Below, piece after piece: positions 9,198 through 56,588 of a stretch of 64,000 nt of DNA. The stretch spans positions 24,661 to 88,660 of the forward strand of contig JAUXSN010000026.1 of NCBI GenBank assembly GCA_030679895.1, written 5' to 3'. The notes beneath the pieces were generated by a model that saw only the letters and a program-made list of their open reading frames with translations, made no database searches and was not told where the DNA came from. The stretch comes from Candidatus Moraniibacteriota bacterium (GTDB lineage: Bacteria > Patescibacteriota > Minisyncoccia > Moranbacterales > UBA11712). Both the position numbers and the translations under genes were made by a program. Numbering within the stretch: position 1 is the first letter of the stretch; each line of letters starts with the position of its first letter.

Positions 9198-9231
9198 ATA
9201 AAAATACTGAAAATAATCCTCAAATAGCACA

Positions 9232-14405: not shown

Positions 14406-15755
14406 CTATTTTACCTTCCATTCCTCCGTCTGTCTCGGCAGAAGCTTTTCCGCCTGTTCCGGAAAACGCATAATTTCCTCGGAAATAAGCTCCATTCTGG
14501 CTCCCTGGGATCCTTTTATCAAAATCACGTCCCCTTCTTTCAAGGCTTTTTGAATAGGGATTTTAGCCTCGAACGAGTCATCGTAGCAGAAAACATTGTT
14601 TTTGTCAAGTCCCGACCGAATCGCTTCGTCGGCGATGAATTTCGCCTTGTCGCCAATCGCGAAAAGAATATCGGCAACTTGGGCCGCTTTTTTTCCCACT
14701 TCCCGATGTCCCGCTTCCGCTGCTTCGCCCAGCTCCAACATATTTCCCAGGGCCGCTATTTTTCGGCGCGCCTGAATTTTTTCCAGCACTTCAAGGGCGG
14801 CCAGCGTTGACTGCGGAGCGGCGTTATAGCTGTCCTCAATGATCATCGTGTTTTTGATCCCGTCTATAATATTCAATCGTCCCGCCGGTGCCTGAAAATC
14901 TTTGAGCGCTCCGGCAATCTCCAAAAGATTCATTCCAAAATGAATGCCGACCGCCGTGGCCGCCAGAGCCGAATATATTTGAGGCCTTCCGACAGATTGC
15001 GTCAGTCTTACCGGCATAGTTGTCCCTTCAAAGCTCAACTTGAAGCTGATGCCCCGAATCTTGCTGATATCGATACCCTTGCGATCTTTCACCGTTTCAT
15101 AGCCGAAGAAAACATCTGAAGCTCGAACGTCGGCTGCCTCTGAAAAGCCGAAAAACATTTTTTTTACCTTCACCGCTTCGGCCATTTTTCTCGCTTCCTC
15201 ATCGTCATAATTGAGAACTGCCAGTCCTTCTTTGTTTAAAAACCGGACTAAATAACTTTTTTCCCGGACAATTTGCTTTTTATCTTTGAAAAATTCGAGA
15301 TGGCTGATGCCAATGGCCGTAACCACGCCCACTTCCGGCTGGATGAAATCCACCAGATATTTGATATCTCCCGGCCGGTCCGCTCCCATTTCGAGAACCA
15401 TAATTTCGGGATATTTTTTCTTTGATGAAAAGAAAAGAATTCCGATTGACCGCAGAAACACTACGGTCCATTTTAAGAAGCTTCCGCCCCCGCCGGAAAG
15501 GCCGAGGATAGTAAGCGGCAGGCCGATTTCGTTGTTGTAATTCTTTTCGTTCTTGCGCACTCGATACTTTGAAGCCAGCACCGTATAAATCGCTTCTTTC
15601 GTTGAACTTTTTCCCACTGATCCCGTAACGCCGACAATGCGAGGCCTGAATTCACGCAAGGTTCTGGTTGCGAAATATTTTAATATTTTTTCCAATATTA
15701 TTATTCTTTTTGATTTCATGTTAATAATTTTCAATTTCCAATTTTCAATTTTCAA
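14406..15755 (-). CDS. murF: UDP-N-acetylmuramoyl-tripeptide--D-alanyl-D-alanine ligase
   Basis: Mur ligase central domain GVTGSVGKSSTKE; its position after ftsI in the dcw cluster; 449 aa. Confidence 0.8.
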   Translation of the reverse strand: MKIENWKLKIINMKSKRIIILEKILKYFATRTLREFRPRIVGVTGSVGKSSTKEAIYTVLASKYRVRKNEKNYNNEIGLPLTILGLSGGGGSFLKWTVVFLRSIGILFFSSKKKYPEIMVLEMGADRPGDIKYLVDFIQPEVGVVTAIGISHLEFFKDKKQIVREKSYLVRFLNKEGLAVLNYDDEEARKMAEAVKVKKMFFGFSEAADVRASDVFFGYETVKDRKGIDISKIRGISFKLSFEGTTMPVRLTQSVGRPQIYSALAATAVGIHFGMNLLEIAGALKDFQAPAGRLNIIDGIKNTMIIEDSYNAAPQSTLAALEVLEKIQARRKIAALGNMLELGEAAEAGHREVGKKAAQVADILFAIGDKAKFIADEAIRSGLDKNNVFCYDDSFEAKIPIQKALKEGDVILIKGSQGARMELISEEIMRFPEQAEKLLPRQTEEWKVK

Positions 15756-15861
15756 TCAATACTCCAATTCTCCAATTTTCAATGAAATAAAGTTTGAAAA
15801 TTTTGTCATTGTGACATTGAAAATTGTTTGGAAATTAGAAATTGATAATTGAAAATTAGAA
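15756..15861. repeat. AATTTTCAA/TTGAAAATT unit arrays around the short palindrome tgtcattgtgacat (possible empty site or solo terminal inverted repeat of the GC-hairpin element)
   Basis: ttaataattttcaatttccaattttcaattttcaatcaa...tttgaaaattttgtcattgtgacattgaaaattgtttggaaattagaaattgataattgaaaatt. Confidence 0.65.
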
Positions 15862-19120: not shown

Positions 19121-19129
19121 CGATTATTA

Positions 19130-19180
19130 TCCTAAAGTTCAACTTTCGGAACGCTTCCTAAAGTTGAACTTTAGGATTCA
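19130..19180. promoter_or_regulatory. Twin palindromes TCCTAAAGTTcAACTTTcGGA and TCCTAAAGTTgAACTTTAGGA between mraZ and rsmH
   Basis: Two tandem 21-bp inverted repeats of the TCCTAAAG-N5-CTTTAGGA type; the same design recurs at 55644..55691. Confidence 0.65.
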
Positions 19181-35095: not shown

Positions 35096-35177
35096 TGTCA
35101 TTCCCGCGAAAGCGGGAATCCAGTAATCGTTGCTATTCAGTTTTTTTCTGGATTCCGCATCAAGTGCGGGATGACAC
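35096..35177. mobile_element. GC-hairpin palindromic MITE-like element, full copy A, immediately 3' of uvrA
   Basis: tgtcattcccgcgaaagcgggaatccag - spacer - ctggattccgcatcaagtgcgggatgacac; termini TGTCAT/ATGACA. Confidence 0.7.
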
Positions 35178-35183
35178 TTCGTG

Positions 35184-38135
35184 TCACTTCCTTAAAATTT
35201 CTTTAAGAAATTTTGCTGTATAACTTTCCTTGTGATATTTCACCACTTCCTCCGGCGGGCCGGTGACGACGACGCGTCCGCCAAGGTCACCGCCTTCGGG
35301 ACCAAGATCAATTATCCAATCCGCCGTTTTGATGACATCCATATTATGTTCGATCACGATCACGGTATTTCCCGCTTCGACCAAACGGTTGAGAACGCCC
35401 AACAACTTCTTGATATCTTCAAAATGCAGTCCGGTGGTCGGCTCGTCCAATATGTACAGGGTATCACCCGACGAGCGGCGCGACAATTCCGTGGCCAGTT
35501 TGATCCTCTGCGCTTCCCCGCCGGAAAGAGTGGTCGCCGATTGGCCGAGATTGATATACCCAAGTCCCACGTCTTCGAGAACCTTGAGCGCTTCATGAAT
35601 CGCCGGGAAATTTTCAAAAAAATCTTTGGCTTCGCTCACCGTCATCGCCAAAACATCGGCAATGGTTTTTCCTTTATATTTCACTTGCAAGGTTTCGCTG
35701 TTATAGCGCTTTCCGGAACATACGTCGCAAGGAAGATAAACGTCCGGCATAAATTGCATTTCGATCTTGAGAAATCCTTCGCCGGCGCAATTGTCGCAAC
35801 GCCCGCCATTCACATTGAAAGAAAATCTTCCCGGGCCATAACCGCGTTGTTTGGCTTCTCTCGTCATGGCAAACAAAGTCCGGATCGGCGTGAAAAGTCC
35901 GGTGTAAGTCGCCGGATTGGACCGCGGCGTGCGACCGATCGGAGACTGGTCGATGTGGATCACTTTGTCGACATATTGCGTCCCAAGAATTTCTTTGTGC
36001 CGCCCCGGCCGCTCGAGTGAGCGCATAATTTTCGACGACAAACCTTTCCCCAGTATATCCTCAACCAGTGTCGATTTTCCGCTACCGCTGACACCCGTCA
36101 CACAAGTCAATGTTTTCAGGGGAAATTCGACTGTTATACTCTTGAGATTGTGTTCAGTGGCACCTTTCACAGTGAGCCACTTTTTGTTTTTCACCGGACG
36201 GCGGAATTTGGGAATTTCTATTTCAGCATCACCTCGCAAATATTTTCCCGTGATCGATTTTTTTTCTTTTTCGATATCCTTCACCGAACCTTCGGCCACG
36301 ATTTCTCCGCCAAGTTTTCCCGCTCCCGGACCGATATCAACCAGATGATCGGCCGCCCGGATCGTTTCTTCGTCGTGTTCAATGACAATGACCGTGTTCC
36401 CGATATCTCTCAATTTGAGCAATGTTTCAAGTAATTTCGCATTATCTCGCGCGTGAAGCCCTACTGACGGCTCGTCGAGGATATACAAAACTCCGACTAA
36501 TTGCGATCCAATCTGGGAAGCGAGGCGGATTCTCTGCGTTTCGCCACCGGCCAAAGTATTGGCGGATCTGCCCAAGGTCAAATACCCAAGACCCACATCC
36601 TCCAAAAACTTCAAACGATTTTTCACCTCTTTGAGAATTCTGTCGGCGATTATTTTTTCCCGCTCGTTTAATTTTATGCCTTCAAAAAATTTCAGCGTTT
36701 CATTCACGCTCACGGTTGAAATTTCGGATACATTTTTTCCGCCAACAGTCACAAGCAACGCTTCGGGTTTGTATCTCGATCCTCGACAAGCGCCGCAGGG
36801 ACTTTGGGACATATATTTTTCAATGCCTTCCCGCACCGCTTCCGAATCGGTCTTGAAATATCGGTCGCGCAAAAATCCGACCACGCCCTTCCATTCGATC
36901 TCCCATTTCCAGATCGATCCTGTTTTTGAATGGAATCTCACCGGTATCTCGTCGGCCGGATCATCGCCATTCACAAGCAGTTCTTGCTGGCGGTCCGTGA
37001 GATTCCGGAAACGAACATTGTCCGGAATGGAATAAAAATTCGTCACCGAGCGCAAAATAGTCCCGTAATAATTATTGCGCTTATACGTCCAGGGAATAAT
37101 CGCCCCTTCGGCGATGGTCTTCGTTTTGTCAGGAATTACCATATCGGGATCAATTTCTTTTTTTGTTCCCAGTCCTTCACATTCGGGACACGCTCCCTGC
37201 GGACTATTGAAAGAAAACAGCCGCGGCTCCAGTTCCGGAAAAACAGCATCTTCGTGATCAGGACAGGCCATGTTTTGATTATATATCTGCTCGGATTTTC
37301 CATTGCGCACTTTCACAAATCCTTTCGACAGCTTTAGCGCGCTTTCTGCACCTTCAAATATCCGGCTTATATTTTTATCATTCATTTCGATCGTATCGAT
37401 CAAAATATCAATACTGTGCTTTTTGTATCTGGCTAAAATTTTGCCTTTTTTGGCTTCTTCTTCGAGATTTACTTTTTTGCCATCAATATATGCTTCCGAA
37501 AATCCACGTTTCCACATTTCCGCAAGCAAGGTCGCGTAATCACCCTTTCTCTCGCGTACGACTGGTGAAAGAATTTCAATTTTCAAACTTTTTTCTTTTT
37601 TGTCATCCCCGTGAAAACGGGGATCCAGTTTTGCCTGGTCACTGGAACTTTTCTGGATTCCCACGGAGTTTATCCTCGTGAAAACGGGGACGGGAATGAC
37701 AAGATTGGACAAATCAAATATTCTATCAACTACTTCATCAATCGAAAGTTTTGAAATCTCTTTTTCGCACACCGGACAATGCGTCACGCCGATCTTGGCA
37801 TATAAAAGCCTCAAATAGTCATGAATTTCAGTCACCGTTCCCACCGTCGAGCGCGGATTGTGCGACGCCGCTTTCTGGTCAATCGAAATCGCCGGGCTCA
37901 AGCCTTCGATCGAATCCACATCCGGTTTTTCCATCTGTCCCAAAAACTGCCGGGCATAACTCGAAAGACTCTCGAGATACCGCCTCTGCCCCTCGGCAAA
38001 AATTGTATCAAAAGCCAGCGTCGATTTCCCCGACCCGCTGATGCCCGTGAAAACAATAAACTTCCCCCGAGGTAGTTCAAGGTTTATATTCTTCAAATTA
38101 TGCTCTCGCGCGCCGCGAATTATTATTTTATCCAT
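35184..38135 (-). CDS. uvrA: Excinuclease ABC subunit A
   Basis: Two ABC ATPase modules and Zn fingers; 983 aa, about 35 aa longer than typical because of an in-frame repeat-element insertion (separate entry). Confidence 0.95.
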   Translation of the reverse strand: MDKIIIRGAREHNLKNINLELPRGKFIVFTGISGSGKSTLAFDTIFAEGQRRYLESLSSYARQFLGQMEKPDVDSIEGLSPAISIDQKAASHNPRSTVGTVTEIHDYLRLLYAKIGVTHCPVCEKEISKLSIDEVVDRIFDLSNLVIPVPVFTRINSVGIQKSSSDQAKLDPRFHGDDKKEKSLKIEILSPVVRERKGDYATLLAEMWKRGFSEAYIDGKKVNLEEEAKKGKILARYKKHSIDILIDTIEMNDKNISRIFEGAESALKLSKGFVKVRNGKSEQIYNQNMACPDHEDAVFPELEPRLFSFNSPQGACPECEGLGTKKEIDPDMVIPDKTKTIAEGAIIPWTYKRNNYYGTILRSVTNFYSIPDNVRFRNLTDRQQELLVNGDDPADEIPVRFHSKTGSIWKWEIEWKGVVGFLRDRYFKTDSEAVREGIEKYMSQSPCGACRGSRYKPEALLVTVGGKNVSEISTVSVNETLKFFEGIKLNEREKIIADRILKEVKNRLKFLEDVGLGYLTLGRSANTLAGGETQRIRLASQIGSQLVGVLYILDEPSVGLHARDNAKLLETLLKLRDIGNTVIVIEHDEETIRAADHLVDIGPGAGKLGGEIVAEGSVKDIEKEKKSITGKYLRGDAEIEIPKFRRPVKNKKWLTVKGATEHNLKSITVEFPLKTLTCVTGVSGSGKSTLVEDILGKGLSSKIMRSLERPGRHKEILGTQYVDKVIHIDQSPIGRTPRSNPATYTGLFTPIRTLFAMTREAKQRGYGPGRFSFNVNGGRCDNCAGEGFLKIEMQFMPDVYLPCDVCSGKRYNSETLQVKYKGKTIADVLAMTVSEAKDFFENFPAIHEALKVLEDVGLGYINLGQSATTLSGGEAQRIKLATELSRRSSGDTLYILDEPTTGLHFEDIKKLLGVLNRLVEAGNTVIVIEHNMDVIKTADWIIDLGPEGGDLGGRVVVTGPPEEVVKYHKESYTAKFLKEILRK
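37601..37701. mobile_element. GC-hairpin palindromic MITE-like element, copy B, in frame inside uvrA (encodes VIPVPVFTRINSVGIQKSSSDQAKLDPRFHGDDKK)
   Basis: tgtcatccccgtgaaaacggggatccag...ctggattcccacgg...gtgaaaacggggacgggaatgaca; the uvrA ORF runs through it; the segment is absent from E. coli UvrA between ...VDNVLSQP and EGKRLMLLAPI... Confidence 0.75.
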
Positions 38136-43148: not shown

Positions 43149-45689
43149 TTACAGCGGTTTTTCTCCCATATCGAATGCGTCAGCCGTGGCCGGCGTGGCG
43201 ATATAGCTCGCCTTTTTCATTATCTCTGCATTCACTATATCACGGCTGCGTCCATATTTCAACTTGGAAAGTTCTTTGATGGCTTCCGCCACTTTGGGAT
43301 TGCCCTTTGTCGGCGGATAGGTTTTCATATTGAACGGCGTTGCCACCTGGCTGTTGATCAGAAGCTTCATGAAACAATTGCGGTTATCCACGTTCATCAG
43401 ATCATTCGCGTCGAACACCGGCTCAAATTGCTTCTGCACAAATTCGGCGTCTTCCGCTCCGATCCGGAAGGAACAAATGGATCCGACGTTTCCAAAAACG
43501 GCTTTCGAAATTTCTTCTTTGAGCTGGGCAATGAATTGATGGGCGATAATGAGCGCCAAGCGGTATTTTCGGGCTTCCGAAAGGATCTGGGAGATCGAAT
43601 CGGTGGTGAAGTTCTGGAATTCGTCGATATAGAGATAGAAGTCTTTGCGTTCCGCTTCCGGCATATCCACCCGGGAAAGAGCGGCAATCAGAATTTTTCC
43701 GACAATCACCATTCCGAGAAGATTGGCGTTTATTTCACCGATTTTCCCCTTTGAAAGATTGACGAGAACAATTTGCTGGTCATCCATCGCCCGGCGGAAA
43801 TTCACCGTCGTCTTTTCCTGGGCGATAATCGGCCGCATCATATCGTTCGATATAAACTGCGTGAGTTTCGAGGTGATATAGGGAACCATATTCGCCAGCG
43901 CCGCCTCTCCGCCCGCTTTTTCGGCTTCCTTTTCCCAAAAATTCTTCACAATCGGGTTAGAGCAATAAGAAAGCTTCATGTGCCGGAATTCCTCATCGGC
44001 CAAAACCCTCGGGATCTCCATCAGGGTCGAACCTGATTCCGGATGCTCCATCACCAGAAGCGCCGCGTTTCGCATATATTGCTCGAACATCGGACCGCCG
44101 GTTTGCTTCAAATCATAAAGCTTGTCGAAAATATTGATGATTTCATTGATGACAAAAGTTTTTTGTTCCGGTTTATTGGTATCATACTCGAGCATATTGA
44201 GCCCGAAGGGGCGCTCCATATCCGCCGGGTCGAAATATATGACGTCTTCCGCCCGCTCTTTCGGAACGCATTCGATCACGTGTTCGACAAATTCGCCGTG
44301 AGGATCGATGACGCAAACGCCCCGACCGTTCTTGATGTCTTGCTTGACCATTTCTTCCATCATTGTTGATTTACCGGTTCCCGTCTGCCCGACGATATAG
44401 AAATGGCGGCGGCGGTCGTCATCATCGTGATGGATGACTGTTTCCACTCCCCGGTAATCATTGAATCCCAGAATTATTCCTTCTTTGGAAATATTCGGCG
44501 GCGGCGCGGCCGTCCGGGCCTTGAGCCAGGCAATTTTGGGAGTTTCCGTCGAAAAGAGCGGAAAATGGAAGATGCTGGATATTTCTTCCGAAGAAAGCAC
44601 GAAGCTTTGCTCGTTTTTGAAATTGCGGAAAATGAAATCGAAAGCGATTTTTTTCTCTTTTTTCTGATTTTCTCTCACAACCTTGAAGCCGTTTATACTC
44701 GGATTTTCGTACTGGATAAAAGCATTTTCCAGTTCCGCGAGAACTGCTTCGGCTCTTTCCTTGCTTAGGGCCGAGGATACCAGCCTGATGTTTGCGCTAA
44801 AACCGGGCTTATTAGCTTTTCCTTCAATTTTTTTGACAATTTCCTGCTCTTCCGGAGTGAGTTGGATAGTTTCCTTATCGGATTTAAAAACATCCCTTTT
44901 CTGGTCCTCGTTCTTTTTGACCATTACATTGAAAAATCCGCGGAAAAATTGCCGGAAAGGCGTGTCGCGTTTTACGTCGGAGAGGCGCCTCCCCTGCTGC
45001 ATTTTGTGGGCAATTTCCCTTCCCTTGCTCCTCCAATCTCCGCGGGCAGGCTTCACGAGCAGCTGGATGGCCGCCCCTTCTTTTTTTTCATCAAACTTTC
45101 CCAGAACATTGGTAATGTTGTTGAGCGGATCGGATTCCAAAGTTTGGTACGTGCGAAGCGGAAGACAATCTTTTTCCCGAAGTTTCAAATACGAAGCGGC
45201 AGTGAAGCTTCCCGGATAAAATATATTGTAGTCTTTCACGCGTTCAATGGCCGCTTTCGGATAAAAACTGTGAATTTGTCTTTCGACAATCTCAATAAAT
45301 TTTTTTGGAGCTCCCACATAGAAAGAAATTTCATCGTTTTCAGCCGGGTTGGAAATTTCCAGCGCGATCACCGCGTCGCCATAAATTATCCTGTGCCAAA
45401 GACCCGCTTTTTCTTTTATGTTTCCGAGGCTGGCGAAGAGATGCTCCATAACAGCGATTATCTCTTTTTCCGGCTTGGGCTGCTGTTGTTGCTGCTGGGA
45501 TGATTGCGATTGAGTTTTGAGAGAATGGCTGACCTTCACAACATCGATATCCATATTCAAAGAGCGGGTAATTTGTCCCTTGAATATGGTGAAGCTTCGA
45601 AAAATCATCCATCCGCCGGATATGAAACTAGCCAGAGCCAGAAGGCCAGCCAGCGGATAAAGTATTAAATTGAGGTTATAGGCGTCCAT
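43149..45689 (-). CDS. VirB4/TraC/TrbE-family (FtsK-HerA superfamily) secretion or conjugation-type ATPase with an N-terminal TM helix
   Basis: 846 aa; Walker A HFYIVGQTGTGKST...VIDPHGEF near aa 425; Walker B FYLYIDEFQNF; RKYRLALIIAHQF motif; VirB4-like domain order (large N-domain, ATPase in the C-terminal half). Confidence 0.6.
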   Translation of the reverse strand: MDAYNLNLILYPLAGLLALASFISGGWMIFRSFTIFKGQITRSLNMDIDVVKVSHSLKTQSQSSQQQQQQPKPEKEIIAVMEHLFASLGNIKEKAGLWHRIIYGDAVIALEISNPAENDEISFYVGAPKKFIEIVERQIHSFYPKAAIERVKDYNIFYPGSFTAASYLKLREKDCLPLRTYQTLESDPLNNITNVLGKFDEKKEGAAIQLLVKPARGDWRSKGREIAHKMQQGRRLSDVKRDTPFRQFFRGFFNVMVKKNEDQKRDVFKSDKETIQLTPEEQEIVKKIEGKANKPGFSANIRLVSSALSKERAEAVLAELENAFIQYENPSINGFKVVRENQKKEKKIAFDFIFRNFKNEQSFVLSSEEISSIFHFPLFSTETPKIAWLKARTAAPPPNISKEGIILGFNDYRGVETVIHHDDDDRRRHFYIVGQTGTGKSTMMEEMVKQDIKNGRGVCVIDPHGEFVEHVIECVPKERAEDVIYFDPADMERPFGLNMLEYDTNKPEQKTFVINEIINIFDKLYDLKQTGGPMFEQYMRNAALLVMEHPESGSTLMEIPRVLADEEFRHMKLSYCSNPIVKNFWEKEAEKAGGEAALANMVPYITSKLTQFISNDMMRPIIAQEKTTVNFRRAMDDQQIVLVNLSKGKIGEINANLLGMVIVGKILIAALSRVDMPEAERKDFYLYIDEFQNFTTDSISQILSEARKYRLALIIAHQFIAQLKEEISKAVFGNVGSICSFRIGAEDAEFVQKQFEPVFDANDLMNVDNRNCFMKLLINSQVATPFNMKTYPPTKGNPKVAEAIKELSKLKYGRSRDIVNAEIMKKASYIATPATADAFDMGEKPL

Positions 45690-45716
45690 TTTTTATTTTT
45701 ATTTCCACTATACAGT

Positions 45717-46253
45717 CTACAATTCCACAAGAAGTCCTTTTTGGAAAAGCTGTTTTCTCAAATCTTCCTCGATCATCTTATCGTGCAACTCGTCCAAAGT
45801 GTAATTGTCGTTGGCGTCCATATGTTGAGCTACTTTTATGGCGTGTTCCGGCCCCTTTTGAAGAGCCAACTCCACCAGCTTTTCGACTTTTTTTTCGTAT
45901 TCGGCAATTCCGGCCACTATTTTGGCATCGTCGGCAATTGTGGTCGCCACGGGCGTTTTTTGCGTGCTGATGGTTTTGCGGACAGTTTCGATTTTTTCGG
46001 ACACTTTTTCTTCCTGGAATTCTCCTCCGATTTCCCGCTCGAGACCGGGAGTTTCAATTTCTCCTGCTAATATACTTTCCGCCGACTCCGTCGAAGGTAA
46101 TATTTCTTCCTGTTCCGACGGTTTTTCAGAAACGTTTTTTTCTTCATTTATAAAGGTTTTTTCGGGATTCAAAGCCTCGCCCGGACCGGTAAATTTTTTC
46201 GTCAAATCAAGATCCTCCTTTTCGATTGGCTCCTGATAATTGGACTGTGCCAT
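45717..46253 (-). CDS. Hypothetical acidic protein (178 aa)
   Basis: Co-directional, 27 nt upstream of the ATPase; Glu-rich. Confidence 0.45.
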   Translation of the reverse strand: MAQSNYQEPIEKEDLDLTKKFTGPGEALNPEKTFINEEKNVSEKPSEQEEILPSTESAESILAGEIETPGLEREIGGEFQEEKVSEKIETVRKTISTQKTPVATTIADDAKIVAGIAEYEKKVEKLVELALQKGPEHAIKVAQHMDANDNYTLDELHDKMIEEDLRKQLFQKGLLVEL

Positions 46254-46314
46254 TGGGATAAATTTATCAATTAGTTAGATAATGCAAAAACCGCACTTTT
46301 ACGCATCCTGACCT

Positions 46315-46653
46315 TTATTTATTTTCCACTGGAGCATTTTTGCCAAAGCTGGCGATATCTTCTTTTAATTCGTCCTTTAATTCACTGACAACTTTCTTCA
46401 CGAATTCGTCGTAGTCGCTTATCTTGCTTCGGAGAAAAGATTCGACTTTCTCCTGATCGGATTTTTCCTCCAGCATTTTCATCAATTCCTGCTGATCTTC
46501 TTTCGTTAATCTGTCCATCGTTTCCATATACAAGCGCTTCAAAACAAGTTCCAGCAAGTCAACCAGAATTTGCGCTTTTCTTTCTTCGGGTAAATCTCCA
46601 AGTCCCAGCTCATCAATAATTGTTTGTTGTAAGATCGTATTTTTTTCGGTCAT
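46315..46653 (-). CDS. Hypothetical acidic helical protein (112 aa)
   Basis: Co-directional member of the cluster. Confidence 0.45.
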   Translation of the reverse strand: MTEKNTILQQTIIDELGLGDLPEERKAQILVDLLELVLKRLYMETMDRLTKEDQQELMKMLEEKSDQEKVESFLRSKISDYDEFVKKVVSELKDELKEDIASFGKNAPVENK

Positions 46654-46670
46654 TTTGTTTATTTAATTAT

Positions 46671-48938
46671 TTATGCGTTGACTACTCTTTTTAGAGTTCT
46701 AACTATTTCTTCAGGCGTTACTTTCCCCTGCGCTAATCCTCTTTGAAGCCAACTTTCCGTGCTTTCATTGCCAAGGGTTGGCCCCAGCTTTCTATTCAGC
46801 TCTTGAGCTGCCCGCCAATACTGTTGCTGTTCGCCAACATTAGCCGGCGGTCCCATCGGCTGATCGGAAGTTAGAAATGATCCCAACATTCTTTTTCTGA
46901 ATTCGCTGGCCGGCTCCCTCCAATCAACAGTTGTACCCTCGCCGTATATTCTTTCTTGAATGAAATCCATCCATTTGTGCGTTTGAGTGTTATCTATCGC
47001 AGCCGTTTCAGCAATTCTATCCGCTATTAGCGGTCCTCTTGATTGGACTAAAGCTTCGTGGGTCTGAGCTGATATTGCGGCTTTCTTCGCATAATTTTCT
47101 TGAGCCATTTTTTGCCGATTATCAAGCGCTTGATCCAACGCCGAACGTTTTCCAGTAGTTTCATAAGTGCTCGCTCCTCGCGGATGATTATCGGCAACGG
47201 CTCTCCCTGCTCCTCCGGGCGCGGAAGCTTCTGCTACAGCTTGTCCGGCACCGCCTGCCCGTGGAACATCATGTATGTGGCCCGCCTTTATTCCCGAAGT
47301 TTCACCAAGTAAAATATGCCCGTCTGCGTCGAGAGTGATCGAATCTCCCGGATGAACCACGATGTTGCCTATACCCTGTTCTTTTATGGCGCCCACCGTT
47401 CTCCATTCAGCCCAAATTTTATGTTTTTGATCGTCCGTCAAGCCGCTGAAGTCTTCAACCCCTTTTATGCCTAAACGCTTCAGAATACCTTGATCCTTGA
47501 ACGATCCAAACAGTCTTTTTGCCTCATCGTCGCTATATCCGTATTCATCAAAATGTTGCATAAAAATATCTCGCGTGCTTCTCCAAACGCTCCCGCCTTC
47601 TCCTACTTTTGCTGTACCTCCGGTAAATTCCCAATGCTCTACCTGTTCATATCCAGGTACTATTGGACCATGTTTCTGATCAGGGTTGATAATTCCTTTC
47701 CCGGCTCCGGCTGGCATTTCCGCATCGGTAATTGAACTGTGCGCGGCATCGTAAAAACCGGTTTTTCCGCCTCCGAACGAATGCGTCACCTTTTCCCAAG
47801 CCTGGCCGAAGAATCCTTTAATATCGGCTGCGTAATAGCTGGCGATAGTGCCCGCCAAAAATGTTCCGCCCGCAAGCCCAAGCGCCAATTTTTTATGTTT
47901 TGCGTCTTTATCAGCAAATGCTTGCTCCTCCCCTGTTATTGATTTTAAGCCTTCCCTTTCCGCAATAAAAGCGTTCCATTCTTCATCCGTTTTTTGTTTT
48001 TTGGCCTCAATTATTTTTAAAACATCGGCTTGAACTTCTTTTTCCTTTTTTTCCACGAAGCCTTTCTCCATTCTTTTCTTCAACGCATAACCGGCTCCTA
48101 CAGAACCAAAAGCGCGCCACGCCATTGCTGCCGACGCCCCGGCTGATCCAACTGCCACAATACCCAAAGCGGGCAAACTGGCCGCGATAAGAGACGTTGC
48201 GGCAAAACCAATGGCCGCGGCAGTTGCCACCCCTTTCGCAACTCCTTTTACGGTCAATTTTCCATCCTTTAGAAATTGTTTGGAGATAAACTCCCGGTAA
48301 TTCTTGCTGACGTTTGCCAAGCCCACAAAAGCATTGTTAAATGTGGCATCTTTTGCTCGAATTCCGTCTTCCTCCAGCCTCGATTTGATGGCAACCATTG
48401 TCTCGTGATAATTTGTCTCAAATTCCGCCCACTCTTGCTCATTTCCGCTCAAGACGTGCCTGCCAGCAGCCATTAATTTCGGGTGCAAAGTTTTTCTATT
48501 TTCCAGGTATCCCTTGATTTCTTCATCTTCAATATTTCTTTTCCATATACCCAAAGCTTCAAAAATAATCTTCAATTTGCCTTTCGATTTATGCCTTGCT
48601 GCGGCTATCTTTTTTTCATTTTCATCAAATTCCTTCCTCACTTGATCAAATTCTTTCCGGATTTTTCTTTCTTCTTCAAGCGTTGCCAAAGGAACCGGTG
48701 GCTGATCAATCCGACTGCCCCGGCTACCACCTTCAAATTCACTGAACCTCTTTGGCTCTCTTTTTTCCTCGGTTCCAGCTCTATCGTGACCAGGCTCACC
48801 TCCCATAAGCCCCGCCCCGGATTTTTCAACGGGTTCCGGTTCAGCATCGGGAGACGTGGCTGCTGGAGTCGCAGTTACAAGATCTTCAGGCTTCCCGGGT
48901 CGCGGATTGATATCTTTTCTTAAACCTTCTCTTATCAT
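46671..48938 (-). CDS. Large hypothetical protein (755 aa) with a central Gly/Ala-rich block of 2-3 TM helices; GC-richer than the flanks
   Basis: Hydrophobic block GVATAAAIGFAATSLIAASLPALGIVAVGSAGASAAMAW; no recognised catalytic motif. Confidence 0.5.
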   Translation of the reverse strand: MIREGLRKDINPRPGKPEDLVTATPAATSPDAEPEPVEKSGAGLMGGEPGHDRAGTEEKREPKRFSEFEGGSRGSRIDQPPVPLATLEEERKIRKEFDQVRKEFDENEKKIAAARHKSKGKLKIIFEALGIWKRNIEDEEIKGYLENRKTLHPKLMAAGRHVLSGNEQEWAEFETNYHETMVAIKSRLEEDGIRAKDATFNNAFVGLANVSKNYREFISKQFLKDGKLTVKGVAKGVATAAAIGFAATSLIAASLPALGIVAVGSAGASAAMAWRAFGSVGAGYALKKRMEKGFVEKKEKEVQADVLKIIEAKKQKTDEEWNAFIAEREGLKSITGEEQAFADKDAKHKKLALGLAGGTFLAGTIASYYAADIKGFFGQAWEKVTHSFGGGKTGFYDAAHSSITDAEMPAGAGKGIINPDQKHGPIVPGYEQVEHWEFTGGTAKVGEGGSVWRSTRDIFMQHFDEYGYSDDEAKRLFGSFKDQGILKRLGIKGVEDFSGLTDDQKHKIWAEWRTVGAIKEQGIGNIVVHPGDSITLDADGHILLGETSGIKAGHIHDVPRAGGAGQAVAEASAPGGAGRAVADNHPRGASTYETTGKRSALDQALDNRQKMAQENYAKKAAISAQTHEALVQSRGPLIADRIAETAAIDNTQTHKWMDFIQERIYGEGTTVDWREPASEFRKRMLGSFLTSDQPMGPPANVGEQQQYWRAAQELNRKLGPTLGNESTESWLQRGLAQGKVTPEEIVRTLKRVVNA

Positions 48939-48945
48939 ATAAATT

Positions 48946-49986
48946 TTATTTACTTTTAGCTAAAAAATCTTCAATTTCAGTTGCTTCTTCAAAAAACTTG
49001 GCTATTTGTTTAACACCCTCTTCGCTAAAATTTTCTTCTCTTGCAATTTCTTCCACAAAACCGATAAATTCCAAGTTGAGAGCGGCTAGCTCTCCCTTTT
49101 TTATATCTATTTTATCCTTTTCTTTTCTATAACGGTTTAAAACCGGCATCAGCCAATCTTTCAAAAAATATTCAACATCCTCTTCCGGCAGTTTGGCTAT
49201 TTCGCTTAAGGCTGCGTTTGCTTTGTTCAGAGCTTTCATCTTGACATCAACTATTCTTTTTTCATTCGGAGATAAACTATCATAATTTAGTGCCAGCGAT
49301 TCGCGAGCTTCCTGAATTCCCGCTTTTTTGAATAATTCTTCTTTTATATCCGTTTCGGCAGGTTCCCTTTCTCCGGCAGCATCACCGGCTTCGGAACCAC
49401 TTTTCCCAATATTTTCTCTTCTTTTTTCGATTTTTCGCAACTCCTTATAAGAAGTAAGAAATTTGCTTAATTCCCTCTCCGGATTGAGGCAGCGTTTATA
49501 TACCGCGTTTTGCGCAAATTGTGTATACTTTATTTTTTTCCCGGCTAACTCCAAATCGGCTATTCCAGCCGCTATATCTTGAAAAATTTGCTCCATAGAT
49601 TCTTCGATTTTTTCTATGGAACTTGAAAACTCATCGATCTCTTTTGCTAAATCGTCATAATTTATTCCCTTGCTTTCAATCAGCCTCTTTCTTTCAGCAT
49701 TTTCTTTCGCCACAAGCGCCCATTCCATTTTTTCTTTCAACTTGCCGTACGCCTCCTTGATCGCTTCTTTTATTTCTTCGCCATATTCCTTTTTGATCTT
49801 TTCTATTTTCGCTTTTTTTTCCTCGGAATCAAATTCATCTTTAATCCCTTGGTTTACCACCAATTTTTCTTCTTCCGCAACAGCTATTCCAGGGACAGTA
49901 ATTTTCCTATCTGCCGCCGAGGCAACCGCGGCTCCCTTTACTTCCAAACCCGGAGCTACTCCCGATGTTTTTTTCCTTCCACTCAT
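48946..49986 (-). CDS. Hypothetical coiled-coil protein (346 aa)
   Basis: K/E-rich heptad-like sequence; 7-nt gap to the downstream gene. Confidence 0.45.
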   Translation of the reverse strand: MSGRKKTSGVAPGLEVKGAAVASAADRKITVPGIAVAEEEKLVVNQGIKDEFDSEEKKAKIEKIKKEYGEEIKEAIKEAYGKLKEKMEWALVAKENAERKRLIESKGINYDDLAKEIDEFSSSIEKIEESMEQIFQDIAAGIADLELAGKKIKYTQFAQNAVYKRCLNPERELSKFLTSYKELRKIEKRRENIGKSGSEAGDAAGEREPAETDIKEELFKKAGIQEARESLALNYDSLSPNEKRIVDVKMKALNKANAALSEIAKLPEEDVEYFLKDWLMPVLNRYRKEKDKIDIKKGELAALNLEFIGFVEEIAREENFSEEGVKQIAKFFEEATEIEDFLAKSK

Positions 49987-50159
49987 TTCGTCAAAATAAA
50001 ATTAAACTAGCGCAAAACTAGTCTGCGTTCGTAATTGGATTATACCACAAAATTAATGTGAAAAGAACCCTGTGGATAACTTTTTCTTCAAAAAAATAAC
50101 CCCGATCCGAATCAAGCAGCGCCTGATTCGAAACGGGGGTCGGAAAAACTTACCGTTGC

Positions 50160-50966
50160 TTAGAACACCTCCAGGGGAATCCGAGCTTCTCCCTTCGGAT
50201 CCCCATTGGGGACGATACGAATTTCGCGTTTACCGGGAGCAGAAAATGTGAAGGTATTGGGGTGCTTGATCGTCATTGCGACCGAGCCATCAAACTCGAT
50301 TCGGTCCGAATCATCATTGATGTCGGAGCGGATGAAGAGTAAATCAAACCCGCTTTTCAACCTAATGCCCTGTTTATGGTTTTCGGGGGAGATTATCTCC
50401 ACTTTCCCTCCCTCAATCCTGAATGTGATAATCCGGTCATTGATTTTTTTATCCGTGGGAATTATTACCGCGGTCAAAGGCCTTTCCTTCACCGCTGCCT
50501 GTCCATTCCAATGCGCAATAGACATCGTGACCCCGGACCAAATTTCAATAATGTCTCCGCTGACACGGAGAAAGCCATTAGGGATATCCCTTTCCTCCTT
50601 GACGAATTTTATCCCCCCGCGTATAGGCTGCATCACCAGGTAACTAAGTTCCGGAGCGGAACTGCCTTTTGTAAAAGAGAAAACAATGGCATCTTTGCCC
50701 GCGCCAAAAAAATTGCGGACCGGCTCCACGATTCCAGCCGAATGCTCTGTATAGCTGATAACCTTTTTCAGCTTTCCCCCAGACTTGAGAAATATCTGAA
50801 CATGGGTCTGGTCAGATTGGAAATCCGTGCAATAAACGACCCGGTAATGCTTTTTGCCCCACTTCAGGAAAAAATTCCCCTCTTCGGCCTTTCCCGGAGC
50901 AGGAAAAGCAAATAAGATCAGAAAAACTACCGCTAATACGCCACACAAATTTTTAAAAAACAACAT
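50160..50966 (-). CDS. Hypothetical secreted protein (signal peptide MLFFKNLCGVLAVVFLILFAFPAPGKA), first gene of the cluster
   Basis: GGAGGG SD before the ATG at 50966; the track ORF extends to 51014. Confidence 0.45.
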   Translation of the reverse strand: MLFFKNLCGVLAVVFLILFAFPAPGKAEEGNFFLKWGKKHYRVVYCTDFQSDQTHVQIFLKSGGKLKKVISYTEHSAGIVEPVRNFFGAGKDAIVFSFTKGSSAPELSYLVMQPIRGGIKFVKEERDIPNGFLRVSGDIIEIWSGVTMSIAHWNGQAAVKERPLTAVIIPTDKKINDRIITFRIEGGKVEIISPENHKQGIRLKSGFDLLFIRSDINDDSDRIEFDGSVAMTIKHPNTFTFSAPGKREIRIVPNGDPKGEARIPLEVF

Positions 50967-51094
50967 GAAGTTCACCCTCCCCGTCCGAGTTTTTTTACCA
51001 CTTTGCCTAATCATTAGGGTAAATTGCTGTTTTTGTCAAGTTATTGCTGGCCGGACTTTTTTAGTGTATAATAATATCGTACCGCGATGAAATT

Positions 51095-52789
51095 TTGAAA
51101 CAAAAAATGCGAAAGAGAATAAAAACTCGATGGAAAAGATGGAGAAGTGTCGCGAGTGATTATATCCGCTATAAGCCGGAACAAAAACTCGGCCGCCGGC
51201 AGAAATATTTATATCTGCTGCTTGGCGCGGTTATCGTGATCGGCGCTTTTGCAATCCGGGCCTACCACATTTCTTCTCTTCCGCCGGGAATATATCCCGA
51301 TGAAGCAGTCAACGGCACGGATGCCATAAACGCGATTGAAACCGGCCATTTTCGGCTTTTTTATCCGAATAATTACGGACGGGAGGGGCTATACATAAAC
51401 CTCATTGCTTTAGGATTTATTTTTTTCGGCGTCAGTATCATCACTCTCAAGATTTGGTCAGTATTTTTCGGGACTCTGACTGTGCTCGGAATGATCTTTC
51501 TTGGCCGGGAATTGTTCCGGTCCTGGCACGCGGGACTGGTCGCCGGATTTTTGTACGCCACCACTTTTTGGGCCATAAATTTCAACCGGATCGCTTTCCG
51601 CGCCAATATGCTTCCCTTCGTCCTGGTTTTTTCTTTTTATTTCCTTTTTAGAGGGTTGCGAACCAAAAAAAAGATAAACTACGTCCTCGCCGGAACACTT
51701 TTCGGACTCGGTACTCATACCTACATCGCGTTTCGGGTCGCTCCCGCGATACTGATCGCCCTTTTTATTGCTCTGATTCTCGCAAAAAAATCTTTTTTGA
51801 AAACATATTGGAAAGAAATTTCCATTTATGTTCTTTCTATGTTTTTCGTGGCTCTTCCGATCCTTCTCACTTTCTACGCCCATCCGGAATATTTCGAAAC
51901 CCGCTCCGAAGCGGTTTCCGTTTTTTCTCCGAAAGTCAACCAGGGCCATCTTTGGCAGGCCCTGGGAACCAGCGCCCGCCTTACTTTCGGCATGTTTAAT
52001 TTCAAAGGAGACCAGAATTGGCGTCATAATCTCCCCAGTCAGCCGGAACTTCAATCCTGGACGGGAACATTTTTCCTGATCGGAATTATATTTTTATTTT
52101 TTCAGCTTTTTTATTGGATTTTTTGGAGAATTAAAAATGGAATTCGAAACGATAATTTGACTCTTCCCGTGCTTCTCCTCTCTTGGATCTTTATCATGCT
52201 TCTTCCGGAAATGCTGGCCTATGAAGGCCTGCCGCACACGTTGAGAGCCATCGGCTCGCTCCCTGCCGCCATTTTAATAGCTGTTTTCTCAATTGAAGTC
52301 TTCAGGAGATGGATAATGAAAATCAGTATCGGATACATCAAGATTCCGCTTTATATTTTGCTGGTTTCAGCTGTTTTATTCAGCGGCTATATCTCAACCA
52401 AAAGATATTTTGTCGATTGGGGCCAGAGCCTCGATATTCATCCGGCTTTTTCTCAAAATTTGAAGAATATGGCCCTTTACCTCAATAGCGCTCCCGACAG
52501 TTATCATAAGTACATAGTCGCCAATGCCGGCGGGCAGATTATGGACGATGGCCTGCCGGTTTCCGCCGAGGCGGTAAAAATGCTAACATACTATCGGACT
52601 CCCGGAATAACTTATCTTCGTCCCGGTTTTGATCCGTCCGTTATAAAATCTCCGGCAAAAATGGTCCTGATGTATTACGACGGAGTGATTATTGCCGATA
52701 TTAAATCAAGATTTTCAAACGTTTACATCCAAAAACTGGATCCCCAACCCGGAAACGGAACCGATTATTTTGTAATAAACATTAATTGA
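51095..52789 (+). CDS. GT-C fold glycosyltransferase, ArnT/PMT family (GT39-like)
   Basis: YPDEAVNG DE motif in the first periplasmic loop; polytopic; 564 aa. Confidence 0.6.
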   Translation: MKQKMRKRIKTRWKRWRSVASDYIRYKPEQKLGRRQKYLYLLLGAVIVIGAFAIRAYHISSLPPGIYPDEAVNGTDAINAIETGHFRLFYPNNYGREGLYINLIALGFIFFGVSIITLKIWSVFFGTLTVLGMIFLGRELFRSWHAGLVAGFLYATTFWAINFNRIAFRANMLPFVLVFSFYFLFRGLRTKKKINYVLAGTLFGLGTHTYIAFRVAPAILIALFIALILAKKSFLKTYWKEISIYVLSMFFVALPILLTFYAHPEYFETRSEAVSVFSPKVNQGHLWQALGTSARLTFGMFNFKGDQNWRHNLPSQPELQSWTGTFFLIGIIFLFFQLFYWIFWRIKNGIRNDNLTLPVLLLSWIFIMLLPEMLAYEGLPHTLRAIGSLPAAILIAVFSIEVFRRWIMKISIGYIKIPLYILLVSAVLFSGYISTKRYFVDWGQSLDIHPAFSQNLKNMALYLNSAPDSYHKYIVANAGGQIMDDGLPVSAEAVKMLTYYRTPGITYLRPGFDPSVIKSPAKMVLMYYDGVIIADIKSRFSNVYIQKLDPQPGNGTDYFVININ

Positions 52790-52881
52790 CAGTGATCAGC
52801 AAACAACGAACAGTGAACAATATTTTATTTAGAAGAAAAATAAAAAAATATTGATCACTGATCACTGATCATTGTTCACTG
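52790..52881. repeat. Long palindrome of CAGTGATCA/CAGTGAACA words with an AT-rich loop, between the two GT-C genes
   Basis: cagtgatcagcaaacaacgaacagtgaacaa - AT loop - ttgatcactgatcactgatcattgttcactg; second copy of the family seen at 646..718. Confidence 0.7.
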
Positions 52882-52887
52882 AAGACT

Positions 52888-54690
52888 ATGCTCGAAAAAT
52901 ACAAAAATTTTATCGTCGCGGGAATTTTGGGAATTGTTTTCGCTATTTCTTTCGGAACCATGCTGGGAGACGCCGCCATTATGGATGAAGTGGCCCATAT
53001 CCCTTCCGGGTATTCCTATGTCCGCTATCATGATTTTCGGCTTAATCCCGAACATCCGCCGCTCCTCAAGGATATGGCCGGCATTCCCTTGCAATTCCTG
53101 AATGTTGATTTTCCGATTCAGAATAAATTTTGGACCACGGATGCCAACGGCCAATGGGAAGCCGGATGGGAATTTTTATATCTGCCGCAAAACAACACGG
53201 AAAATATTCTTTTTTGGTCCCGTCTTCCCATCTTGCTCTTATCTTTGCTTTTGGGATTCATGATTTATCGCTGGGCAAAGGAACTTTTCGGAACAAAAGC
53301 GGGTCTTTTGGCTCTTTCCCTTTACGCCTTCGATACCAACATATTGGGCCATAATCATTATGTCACTACCGATTTGGGTATCGCCGCTTTTATGTTTTTC
53401 GCTTTCTATTATTTCATCAAGTACCTCAAGACGCCGAGCTGTAAAACCATTATTCTCGCCGGAATTTTTATGGGTCTGGCGCAACTGGCCAAATTTTCTT
53501 CGGTTTTGATGTTTCCCGTCTTCGGCATCGCGCTATTGCTTTATATATTTTTTAGAAAAGACAAGCTTCCCTTCTCTTTTCTCGGATCAGGGAAAATCAA
53601 AAAATTCCGGGTTCAAAAGTTCTATTTTTATGCCACGACATTTATCGCGGCGCTTCTCATTCACATGGTCTTGATTGGCATTGTTTACGAACTCAATATT
53701 TACGCGATGCCTCCGGCGAAGATCCACCAGCTGGCGGATACGCAAATGTACGGGAAAATTGCCACTGCCGCGAAACCCATTATCCATAAAATGGCGGACA
53801 ATCCAATTCTGCGGCCATACAGCCAGTATTTGATCGGCCTTGTGATGGTTTTTGGCCGAGTGGCCGGAGGAAACACGACTTATTTCTTCGGACAAGTCAC
53901 GAATCAGAGCTTTAGGGAATATTTTCCCATGGTGTTTCTTATCAAAGAACCGATAGCCAACCTGCTCCTGATTCTTTTGGCGGCCGCGACCGGACTTTAT
54001 CTCGCCCTGAAACGCAATCTTTCCGAGTTTCCCCGCAAAATCTGGAACAATATCAAAGATTATCTTGATGGCCACATCGCGGAATTTTCGATGCTTTCTT
54101 TTATCGCGCTTTATGCTTATGTCAGCATCACAGGCAATCTTAATATCGGTTTCCGGCACCTTTTTCCAATCCTGCCCTTCATTTTTATCCTGGTCTCAAA
54201 GGAAGTCGCATTTTTGGGAAGCGCTCTCGGCAGAAAATATCAGAAATATTTTTGGGGGATAGTTTTGCTACTTGTGGCATGGCTCATCGCAGTAGCCGCT
54301 TTCGCCTATCCGAATTATCTGGCGTATTTCAATGAACTGGTCGGGGGATCAAAAAACGGCTACAAATACGTAACCGATTCCAATGTGGACTGGGGACAAG
54401 ATTTGAAACGCCTCGCAAAATGGGTAAACGAAAACAATATTGATAAGATCCGGGTTGATTATTTCGGCGGCGGCGATGTCGGACATTATCTCGGAAATAA
54501 GGCTGTTATCTGGCACGCCCATATGGGACAAGGGCCCGGCTGGTACGCCATTTCAGCCACTTTTCTTCAGAATTCGCTCTATGAAAAAATAACTGAAGGA
54601 AAACCGGATTATCAATGGCTCCGCGATCGCGAACCCTACGCGAATATCGGGGGATCGATATTGGTATATAAAGTAGAAAACGGAATTTAA
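52888..54690 (+). CDS. GT-C fold glycosyltransferase, ArnT/PMT_2 family
   Basis: IMDEVAHIPSGYSY DE motif; polytopic; 600 aa. Confidence 0.6.
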   Translation: MLEKYKNFIVAGILGIVFAISFGTMLGDAAIMDEVAHIPSGYSYVRYHDFRLNPEHPPLLKDMAGIPLQFLNVDFPIQNKFWTTDANGQWEAGWEFLYLPQNNTENILFWSRLPILLLSLLLGFMIYRWAKELFGTKAGLLALSLYAFDTNILGHNHYVTTDLGIAAFMFFAFYYFIKYLKTPSCKTIILAGIFMGLAQLAKFSSVLMFPVFGIALLLYIFFRKDKLPFSFLGSGKIKKFRVQKFYFYATTFIAALLIHMVLIGIVYELNIYAMPPAKIHQLADTQMYGKIATAAKPIIHKMADNPILRPYSQYLIGLVMVFGRVAGGNTTYFFGQVTNQSFREYFPMVFLIKEPIANLLLILLAAATGLYLALKRNLSEFPRKIWNNIKDYLDGHIAEFSMLSFIALYAYVSITGNLNIGFRHLFPILPFIFILVSKEVAFLGSALGRKYQKYFWGIVLLLVAWLIAVAAFAYPNYLAYFNELVGGSKNGYKYVTDSNVDWGQDLKRLAKWVNENNIDKIRVDYFGGGDVGHYLGNKAVIWHAHMGQGPGWYAISATFLQNSLYEKITEGKPDYQWLRDREPYANIGGSILVYKVENGI

Positions 54691-54695
54691 ACATT

Positions 54696-54725
54696 TGTCA
54701 TACCGCACTTGATGCGGGAATGACA
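54696..54725. mobile_element. Solo half-copy (single hairpin) of the GC-hairpin element, acting as a bidirectional terminator
   Basis: tgtcataccgcacttgatgcgggaatgaca. Confidence 0.6.
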
Positions 54726-54753
54726 AAAAAAGAAGTTAATTATTTTGACAAAG

Positions 54754-55638: not shown

Positions 55639-55643
55639 GTTTT

Positions 55644-55691
55644 TCCTAAAGTTTAGCTTTAGGAAGCGTTCCTAAAGCTAAACTTTAGGAA
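55644..55691. promoter_or_regulatory. Twin palindromes TCCTAAAGtttagCTTTAGGA and TCCTAAAGctaaaCTTTAGGA directly upstream of the ftsQ-like start (the AGGA of the proximal arm sits at SD distance)
   Basis: Same TCCTAAAG-N5-CTTTAGGA x2 design as at 19130..19180. Confidence 0.65.
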
Positions 55692-56442: not shown

Positions 56443-56471
56443 GATAGTATTTCAAATAAAACTTTTTTATT

Positions 56472-56553
56472 TGTCATCCCGCACTTGATGCGGGATCCAG
56501 TTTCTATGCATAAAATTACATTTTCTGGATCCCCGCTTTCGCGGGGATGACAC
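56472..56553. mobile_element. GC-hairpin palindromic MITE-like element, full copy D
   Basis: tgtcatcccgcacttgatgcgggatccag - spacer - ctggatccccgctttcgcggggatgacac. Confidence 0.7.
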
Positions 56554-56588
56554 CTAGATGTCAGAAGCTTTTAATTTAAATTTACAAT

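Follow-up and report, generated by a model that had tools for sequence, protein, structure and literature searches.

Inverted pairs of Ssn-related hairpin motifs in a Moranbacteria genome as candidate gene-less miniatures of a GIY-YIG nuclease cassette

The Neisseria Transformation Sequence (NTS), CGTCATTCCCGCGMAVGCGGGAATCYRG, contains the classical dRS3 repeat, and similar hairpins form a wider class named Ssn-related motifs (SRM), as described by Chenal et al. 2025 (PMC11893778). According to the same paper, SsnA is a 94-aa single-domain GIY-YIG protein that binds these hairpins as single-stranded DNA (ssDNA) only and makes its cut 3 nt 5' to the motif, with ssDNA-only binding and cleavage demonstrated just for the Neisseria and Wolbachia enzymes, and ssn genes are typically flanked by SRMs, a layout that the authors liken to an insertion sequence (PMC11893778). 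Here we report repeats built from this motif in a 64-kb stretch of DNA (the window, meaning the whole of the 64,000 nt analysed) from a metagenome-assembled contig of Candidatus Moraniibacteriota bacterium, a member of the candidate phyla radiation (CPR). Pairs of hairpin modules stand there in inverted orientation around a short spacer, and we consider it probable, at roughly 60%, that these SRM pairs are gene-less miniatures, resembling transposable elements of the miniature inverted-repeat kind (MITEs), of an SRM-ssn-SRM cassette that encodes an ssDNA GIY-YIG nuclease of about 95 aa. This reading draws on the identity of the motif, selection on its hairpin, ends held in common with ssn cassettes, presence and absence between relatives, the lack of target-site duplication and a tolerated insertion in uvrA. 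It ties a previously unannotated CPR repeat to a characterised pair of motif and enzyme, NTS/SRM and Ssn.

Identity and layout of the paired modules

The left module of the first element, A (35096-35123, TGTCATTCCCGCGAAAGCGGGAATCCAG), matches the Neisseria NTS consensus at 27 of 28 positions. A BLAST search of a plasmid collection with A returned two records from N. gonorrhoeae, each some 2.17 Mb long, at 86-88% identity, which represent NTS copies, and stretches of 27-28 nt identical to the left module in Sphingopyxis and Azospirillum; the motif is conserved nearly base for base across Neisseria, alphaproteobacteria and CPR bacteria. The dRS3 form ATTCCC-N8-GGGAAT is present in the left module of A as ATTCCCGCGAAAGCGGGAAT, and B and C carry the compensated form ATCCCC...GGGGAT. 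Four window modules (those at 35096, 37601 and 56472 on the + strand and the one at 56552 on the - strand) match the published SRM expression, HGTCWYN(0-2)YYVSBRHN(0-5)WNVSBRGN(0-2)RNCYNB, against 0.2 expected from first-order Markov simulations; the strict expression is fitted neither by the second module of A (35148-35176) nor by the nested module of C described below. The orientation of an SRM is likewise seen in A, B and C, where GTC precedes the palindrome by 3 bases on its 5' side and a C directly follows it (TGTC/AT-stem-loop-stem-AT/C). Judged by its sequence, the module is a known motif, an SRM of the Neisseria NTS/dRS3 type. We reached the Ssn paper by a full-text search for the DNA string of the module; a literature search by the translated element peptides gave no match.

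The window holds three full elements (A, B and C), a single-hairpin relic (D) and two collapsed copies. A full element consists of a module of 28-29 nt, a 24-nt spacer and a second module in inverted orientation, the module being laid out as TGTCAT-(T/C)-CCCGC-loop-GCGGG-(A/G)-ATCCAG with a loop that is either GAAA or ACTTGAT. If TGTCAT and ATGACA are taken as its limits, A spans 35096-35176 (81 nt), ending one base short of the position given in an earlier note on this DNA (35177), and lies 7 nt past the uvrA stop codon (35184-35186); it comprises a GAAA-loop SRM module on the + strand (35096-35123), the spacer (35124-35147) and an ACTTGAT-loop module on the - strand (35148-35176). B (56472-56552, 81 nt), between the stop of an aminotransferase gene and the start of a Mur-ligase gene, is A in the opposite orientation, with its ACTTGAT-loop module on the + strand (56472-56500), its spacer at 56501-56524 and its GAAA-loop module on the - strand (56525-56552), so that each of the two has one GAAA-loop end and one ACTTGAT-loop end. 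C (37601-37701, 101 nt) lies inside uvrA and is read in frame; its first module (37601-37628) and spacer (37629-37652) are followed by a second module (37653-37701) whose loop contains a nested hairpin of 21 nt (CCTCGTGAAAACGGGG) that nearly duplicates, in direct orientation, the hairpin of the first module. We considered this nested hairpin (20-21 nt) as a restorer of the reading frame and rejected the idea, the element measuring 80 nt without it and 101 nt with it.

The spacers of A, B and C are each exactly 24 nt long and unrelated in sequence; their length seems to be constrained and their sequence not. The composite pattern TGTCAT-N13-21-GRATCCAG-N20-30-CTGGATYC has five matches in the window against 0.00 in 100 dinucleotide-preserving shuffles, and the copies that the earlier note had listed at 35096, 56472, 37601, 54696, 7286 and 11219, as a family with full, half and degenerate members, all exist beyond chance expectation. 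A search of the window with an nhmmer profile built from 47 modules brought no further significant copies. Folded as ssDNA, A, B and D reach z = -4.2 to -6.6 and C reaches z = -2.3. Rfam contains no family that attains its gathering score anywhere in the window, or E<=10 around A, and we dismissed the weak matches as chance, for example Wolbachia sRNA 46 at 18 bits against a threshold of 65 bits.

The half copy D (54696-54725, 30 nt) has just one hairpin, with an ACTTGAT loop, set immediately between TGTCAT and ATGACA. D probably arose by deletion, from a composite that slippage between GCGGG...GCGGG direct repeats would have cut to one hairpin. D lacks ATCCAG and with it the C after the palindrome that Ssn requires for binding (PMC11893778). 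One collapsed, degenerate copy (7284-7319, + strand) consists of the abutting hairpins TCCCGC-TAAA-GCGGGA and CCGCC-GTG-GCGG, followed by TGACA, with no spacer, and the other (11219-11254, - strand) is its reverse complement. The complementarity that the earlier note had seen between these variants amounts to 82% across 55 nt (7278-7332 against 11206-11260). The pair may represent composites whose spacer went by slippage between GGATCC...GGATCC repeats.

A small extra palindrome adjoins the right end (+ strand) of both A and B, where TGTCA stands 5-6 nt beyond ATGACA (35171-35187 and 56547-56564); at A it overlaps the uvrA stop codon and is kept in the relative L001. We considered this ATGACA-N5/6-TGTCA arrangement as a conserved target site and did not adopt that reading.

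Occupied and empty sites in relatives, and insertion into reading frames

The sites of all four elements can be followed in related genomes. For B, we scanned 12 close relatives (aminotransferase 77-83% identical) and found no SRM in any of the loci; in 9 of the 9 relatives that retain the aminotransferase-Mur ligase pair B is absent, and the gap measures 10-25 nt or holds unrelated palindromic repeats. The D site is an empty 18-nt gap in the closest relative (L136, FtsQ 89% identical), a 9-nt gap in L130 and the seat of other palindromes in other relatives. The peptide encoded by C occurs in none of 26 other Moranbacteria-type UvrA proteins; L003 (UvrA 87% identical) has no insertion at the C site, and L001 (UvrA 90% identical) has a different palindrome, CCCGCCTCG...CGAGGCGGG, at exactly the same place. 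L001 and L002 have a counterpart of A, with matching modules, at the position that A occupies; L003 has none. The insertion polymorphism at syntenic loci by which the earlier note proposed to recognise a mobile element is therefore found, with B, C and D absent from the relatives and A in one related lineage only, and A to D are lineage-specific insertions.

The two versions of A show what has been kept. Of the 57 module bases, only 2 differ between the window and L001, while no alignment is possible for the spacers (24 nt in the window, 25 nt in L001) or for the flank downstream; the four-fold degenerate sites of uvrA are 64% identical between the same two genomes. The modules have thus stayed constant as the spacer varied, which argues that they are held by selection or by conversion from other copies. 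A proposal that the spacer of A is the inverted spacer of L001 was rejected, the similarity being too weak.

The gaps orthologous to 54690-54754 and 56442-56589 in the loci L130-L146 are near-empty (9-25 nt) or contain very different palindromic repeats. The pattern suggests that Moranbacteria harbour many families of hairpin elements that turn over rapidly.

The host gene of C, uvrA (35184-38135, - strand), encodes a protein of 983 aa identical to MDP1845561.1 (Candidatus Moranbacteria), in which the element is read through in frame as 38 extra residues, SNLVIPVPVFTRINSVGIQKSSSDQAKLDPRFHGDDKK. The flanks of this segment align to residues 118-164 and 165-224 of solved UvrA, and because residues 164 and 165 are adjacent, the 38 residues have no counterpart. 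All residues that are invariant across 27 aligned UvrA sequences are retained in the window protein, and UvrA is otherwise intact and the insertion tolerated. The AlphaFold model of this UvrA is poor (mean pLDDT 57), with residues 144-182 unstructured and of low confidence. Read from its sequence, the module is open in five of six reading frames, which explains the tolerance of in-frame insertions. Full paired SRMs are also found in frame in LeuRS of a Parcubacteria genome (L025, 2204-2310), in Lgt of a Kuenenbacteria genome (L011, 2476-2553) and in the RefSeq-annotated ileS of Sphingopyxis indica (L222, 401-480), and through such copies in UvrA, LeuRS, Lgt and IleS the elements remodel essential proteins. 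They also inflate calls of hypothetical proteins (through peptides such as SFPRKRES, VIPAKAGIQ and LDPRFRGDD), and masking them would improve CPR gene calls.

Other inserts are seen in the same proteins. The Parcubacteria LeuRS has two further inserts that resemble Rickettsia palindromic elements (RPEs), CHCEESEGRRSNP...SPRPDGARDDG and VIASSERAKQSR...EIASSQAPRNDD. Moranbacteria UvrA varies in length from 945 to 1038 aa and has at least five insertion hot spots (alignment columns ~145-216, 311-370, 478-496, 574-613 and 851-860), which hold unrelated palindrome-like peptides in different lineages (GESLTSDVGSVPTSDVRRPCP; KNPPQSPFKKGGGA...SSPLKKEGLGEDF; KVRPFPSSSEALGIPQGQTL).

Selection on the hairpin and the link to ssn cassettes

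To see how far the paired form extends, we scanned 185,579 species genomes and obtained at least 120 stretches. Among the matches listed are Alpha-, Beta-, Gamma- and Deltaproteobacteria, Verrucomicrobia, Chloroflexi, Nitrospirota, Planctomycetes, Omnitrophica and several CPR groups, one of which is Moraniibacteriota, and on these sequence matches the paired form can be called pan-bacterial. The 51 complete composites from the matches listed have spacers of 20-30 nt, a range that coincides with the limits set by the search pattern, most commonly 23 nt. In Ca. Hatepunaea, among the matches listed, the copies have the spacer and extended flanks in common, and multiplication as units is evident there. 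Tandem composites occur in L032 (2588-3042, Azospirillaceae) and L093 (7340-7845), as four copies at a 124-nt period and three copies at about 210 nt. Viral contigs contributed six matching stretches only, so phages are no obvious vehicle.

In 47 distinct 28-nt modules the stems vary between genomes and stay complementary: 98.1% of cells pair, and 47 cells are changed on both sides, compared with 10.3 in shuffles, a value that none of 500 shuffles reaches. The hairpin is under selection. Just two cells are G-U pairs, and since pairing is of the Watson-Crick type on both strands with almost no G-U, a structure at the level of DNA fits better than one of RNA. This bears on the possibility that the repeats are RNA hairpins selected by the host, as terminators or stabilisers of 3' ends that have been repeated through usefulness and not through mobility. 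Such a role would suit the placement of A, B, D and both collapsed copies, all in short intergenic gaps beside stop codons, and the conservation of modules whose surroundings have diverged, and the earlier note had indeed taken the intergenic copies for bidirectional terminators. However, a terminator scan calls none of them, and the hairpins are followed on the coding strand by A-runs, with no T-tract after them. Copy C sits inside uvrA, the same 28 nt recur across unrelated phyla and within the genes for LeuRS, Lgt and IleS, and the same sites are empty in close relatives. We therefore regard the RNA explanation as improbable.

A link to an enzyme comes from other CPR genomes. In three loci from the matches listed (L039, L065 and L098) a small GIY-YIG open reading frame (ORF) directly adjoins a composite. 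Members of the Ssn family are single-domain GIY-YIG proteins of about 94 aa (CDD cd10448). The CPR comparator ORFs are 94-116 aa long, and the sole domain that they show above the curated Pfam cut-off is GIY-YIG, with E values of 1e-13 to 1e-17; none reaches a cut-off in NCBIfam. The best match of the small GIY-YIG protein in the PDB, where there is no solved Ssn structure, is the distant UPF0213 (E ~1e-3). There are many homologues with 70-85% identity, for the most part on contigs of very small size, and one, P0232 (PJA87032.1), comes from a Moranbacteria genome. The Moranbacteria locus L124 reads TGTCATTCCCGACTTGATCGGGAATCCAG, 12 nt, a 96-aa GIY-YIG ORF and CTAGATTCCCGCCTTCGCGGGAATGACA, with an ACTTGAT-loop module at the 5' end and the reverse complement of a GAAG-loop module at the 3' end, a layout repeated in the cassettes of L039 (Saccharibacteria) and L218 (Doudnabacteria). 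A and B contain both types of cassette end, with 24 nt in place of the gene, the relation expected between a miniature element and its gene-carrying parent. An inverted-pair anatomy is what a mobile cassette with miniature derivatives would produce, an idea that the Ssn authors raised and did not test. With MITEs the window elements have in common their terminal inverted repeats, their size (81-101 nt), their inverted modules of 28-29 nt, their lack of coding capacity and the insertion polymorphism described above; the counterpart with the same ends, which would be the autonomous parent, encodes a nuclease and not a demonstrated transposase.

The same evidence bears on two explanations that invoke a transposase. 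In a classical MITE, moved by cut and paste, a DDE transposase would recognise TGTCAT terminal inverted repeats, and the small size, terminal repeats and presence/absence between relatives would agree with this. However, none of 55 composite matches, those of the window and of L001 and L002 included, is bordered by a target-site duplication, which the earlier note had thought worth seeking, and the flanks are often inverted instead. In addition, no insertion sequence with these ends occurs in the loci examined, and the conserved part of each end is a covarying structured hairpin and not a plain repeat, so that a classical MITE is very unlikely. The absence of target-site duplication would be in keeping with elements of the repetitive extragenic palindromic (REP) type, and two inverted hairpin repeats on either side of a short spacer have the layout of their doublets (REPINs), which are moved by RAYT, a Y1 transposase of the IS200/IS605 type. 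Yet the gene found between such ends is GIY-YIG and not Y1_Tnp, no transposase or recombinase family is matched among the 39 window ORFs scanned against Pfam, and the conserved flank is (T/C)GTCAT here, the flank of REPs being GTAG. We think this explanation very unlikely, if slightly less so than the preceding one. The transposase with TGTCAT terminal repeats anticipated by the earlier note is thus replaced by an Ssn-type GIY-YIG nuclease of about 95 aa, and the window element is, so far as its sequence and that of its counterparts can tell, non-autonomous and mobile in origin, no terminator, and partnered by a nuclease and not a transposase.

That Ssn acts on the window copies in this genome, and how these copies move, we infer as follows. 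In ssDNA each module would fold into a perfect Watson-Crick hairpin, and on each strand of a composite the module at the 5' end would be the one in the correct orientation. If its gene lies elsewhere in the genome, an Ssn may bind both ends in trans and nick just outside the TGTCAT boundaries, on opposite strands. Replication or repair initiated at these nicks could then duplicate the element, or other copies could serve to convert it, with no target-site duplication.

Several observations weigh against the elements being miniatures of an ssn cassette. The three window spacers share no sequence, unlike those of Ca. Hatepunaea, which means that the window copies are of some age, or else that replication does not take them as whole units, and that a recent burst is not shown. 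The left-right asymmetry of the loops holds in three of the four CPR ssn cassettes examined, L216 being different, and no ssn gene was found in the 64-kb window, so that the partner nuclease would have to lie elsewhere in the source genome. To our knowledge, moreover, a GIY-YIG nuclease cuts DNA and has no known capacity to rejoin it, and transposition of SRMs has never been shown experimentally (PMC11893778). Of the earlier note's picture of a recently active, non-autonomous mobile element, the non-autonomous insertion stands, given the occupancy in relatives and the gene-carrying counterpart in other CPR genomes; the recent activity is not supported, as the 24-nt spacers are not shared.

A further explanation also involves the nuclease: the repeats could be domesticated marks for the control of natural transformation, as in Neisseria, retained not as selfish DNA but for genome defence or the control of recombination because Ssn cuts incoming ssDNA at hairpins. 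This is the sole function of NTS and SsnA that has been demonstrated experimentally (PMC11893778), and the modules are indeed strongly conserved relative to neutral sites. The window also includes a gene for a TrwB/HerA-like ATPase (43149-45689) beside ORFs without a Pfam match. However, the Neisseria repeats cluster round particular surface-protein genes, with 2% within genes, according to the same paper (PMC11893778), and the window copies are scattered singly among housekeeping genes, one of them intragenic, with a lineage-specific occupancy of sites. We think this explanation unlikely, though less so than the others set out above, and it does not conflict with a selfish origin of the repeats. 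The ATPase gene is the first of a run that continues with several large ORFs lacking a Pfam match (43149-51014), and the run may be a cluster for DNA transfer or uptake.

The window contains other repeats and genes that stand apart from the SRM elements. The earlier note had called it AT-rich; with a GC content of 39-48% it is not markedly so. An AT-rich palindromic family of the AATTTTCAATTTTCAAT type occupies intergenic DNA at 9050-9230, 11100-11180, 11254-11280 and 15700-15860, and two of its arms (11118-11181 and 15794-15857) are 88% complementary. The palindrome near 15800 that the earlier note had read as an empty site or solo terminal repeat, the tgtcattgtgacat site near 15804, belongs to this different family; TGTCAT alone occurs 23 times in the window, and nothing therefore ties this site to the SRM element. 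A second intergenic family, of the CAGTGATCAGTGAACAG type, is found at 645-733 and 52775-52880, and a similar repeat fills the B site in L139 and L146. A doublet palindrome, TCCTAAAGTTnAnCTTTAGGA, lies at 19127-19176 and 55641-55690, and its copy between the Mur-ligase gene and ftsQ is kept in L136 with compensating changes. The ORF at 5999-6604, among housekeeping genes, carries a domain of the RhuM virulence-protein family.

Comparison with described repeat systems

The closest system is that of the Neisseria NTS/dRS3 repeats and Ssn, with which the window elements agree in 27 of 28 bases, in their fit to the SRM expression and in the orientation of the hairpin (GTCAT on the 5' side, C after the palindrome), and in related CPR genomes the modules flank a single-domain GIY-YIG gene of about 95 aa. 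They differ in having a CPR host, in being sparse (about six copies in 64 kb) and not clustered, in forming tight inverted pairs separated by some 24 nt, and in the lack of a visible ssn gene in the window; moreover, one window copy is intragenic, and the intragenic fraction in N. meningitidis is 2% (PMC11893778). The available text of that paper mentions neither Patescibacteria nor candidate phyla (PMC11893778), and neither there nor in the other literature that we found is there a description of the occurrence in CPR, of a compact paired form with the architecture of the cassette, or of copies read in frame within housekeeping genes.

Two further systems share the paired architecture. In the Neisseria intergenic mosaic elements (NIMEs; dRS3 - RS unit - dRS3), as here, inverted hairpins of the dRS3 type bracket a segment that differs between copies. 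The RS units are 50-150 bp long and fall into families, whereas in the window elements every copy has a spacer of its own, 24 nt long (20-30 nt across phyla). REPINs, or bacterial interspersed mosaic elements (BIMEs), with their RAYT, are alike in their inverted hairpin doublets, in a small single-copy gene acting on single-stranded hairpins and in the absence of target-site duplication, and differ in that the partner here is a GIY-YIG nuclease and not a Y1 (HUH) transposase, and in the flanking motif.

The in-frame copies are best compared with RPEs, palindromic inserts that lie in frame in housekeeping genes and do not destroy them (reviewed in PMC10969869). The hosts are UvrA in the window and LeuRS, Lgt and IleS elsewhere, and the likeness is one of insertion behaviour; RPEs are about 150 bp long and confined to Rickettsia, unlike the window elements. 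Our literature search found no work linking RPEs to GIY-YIG proteins, or describing in-frame palindromes in CPR. Rickettsia is among the genomes with more than 300 SRMs in the Ssn paper, the available text of which mentions neither RPEs nor MITEs (PMC11893778). More tentatively, and with rather less confidence than we place in the cassette origin of the window elements, one may speculate that paired SRMs are the non-autonomous partners of a pan-bacterial selfish cassette made up of nothing more than an ssDNA GIY-YIG nuclease of about 95 aa and a hairpin on each side of it, a MITE system without a transposase, and at the same time a general source of in-frame protein-coding palindromes in housekeeping proteins. 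If so, the phenomenon known from RPEs would reach beyond Rickettsia into further phyla, and there would be a candidate for the enzyme that mobilises such elements.

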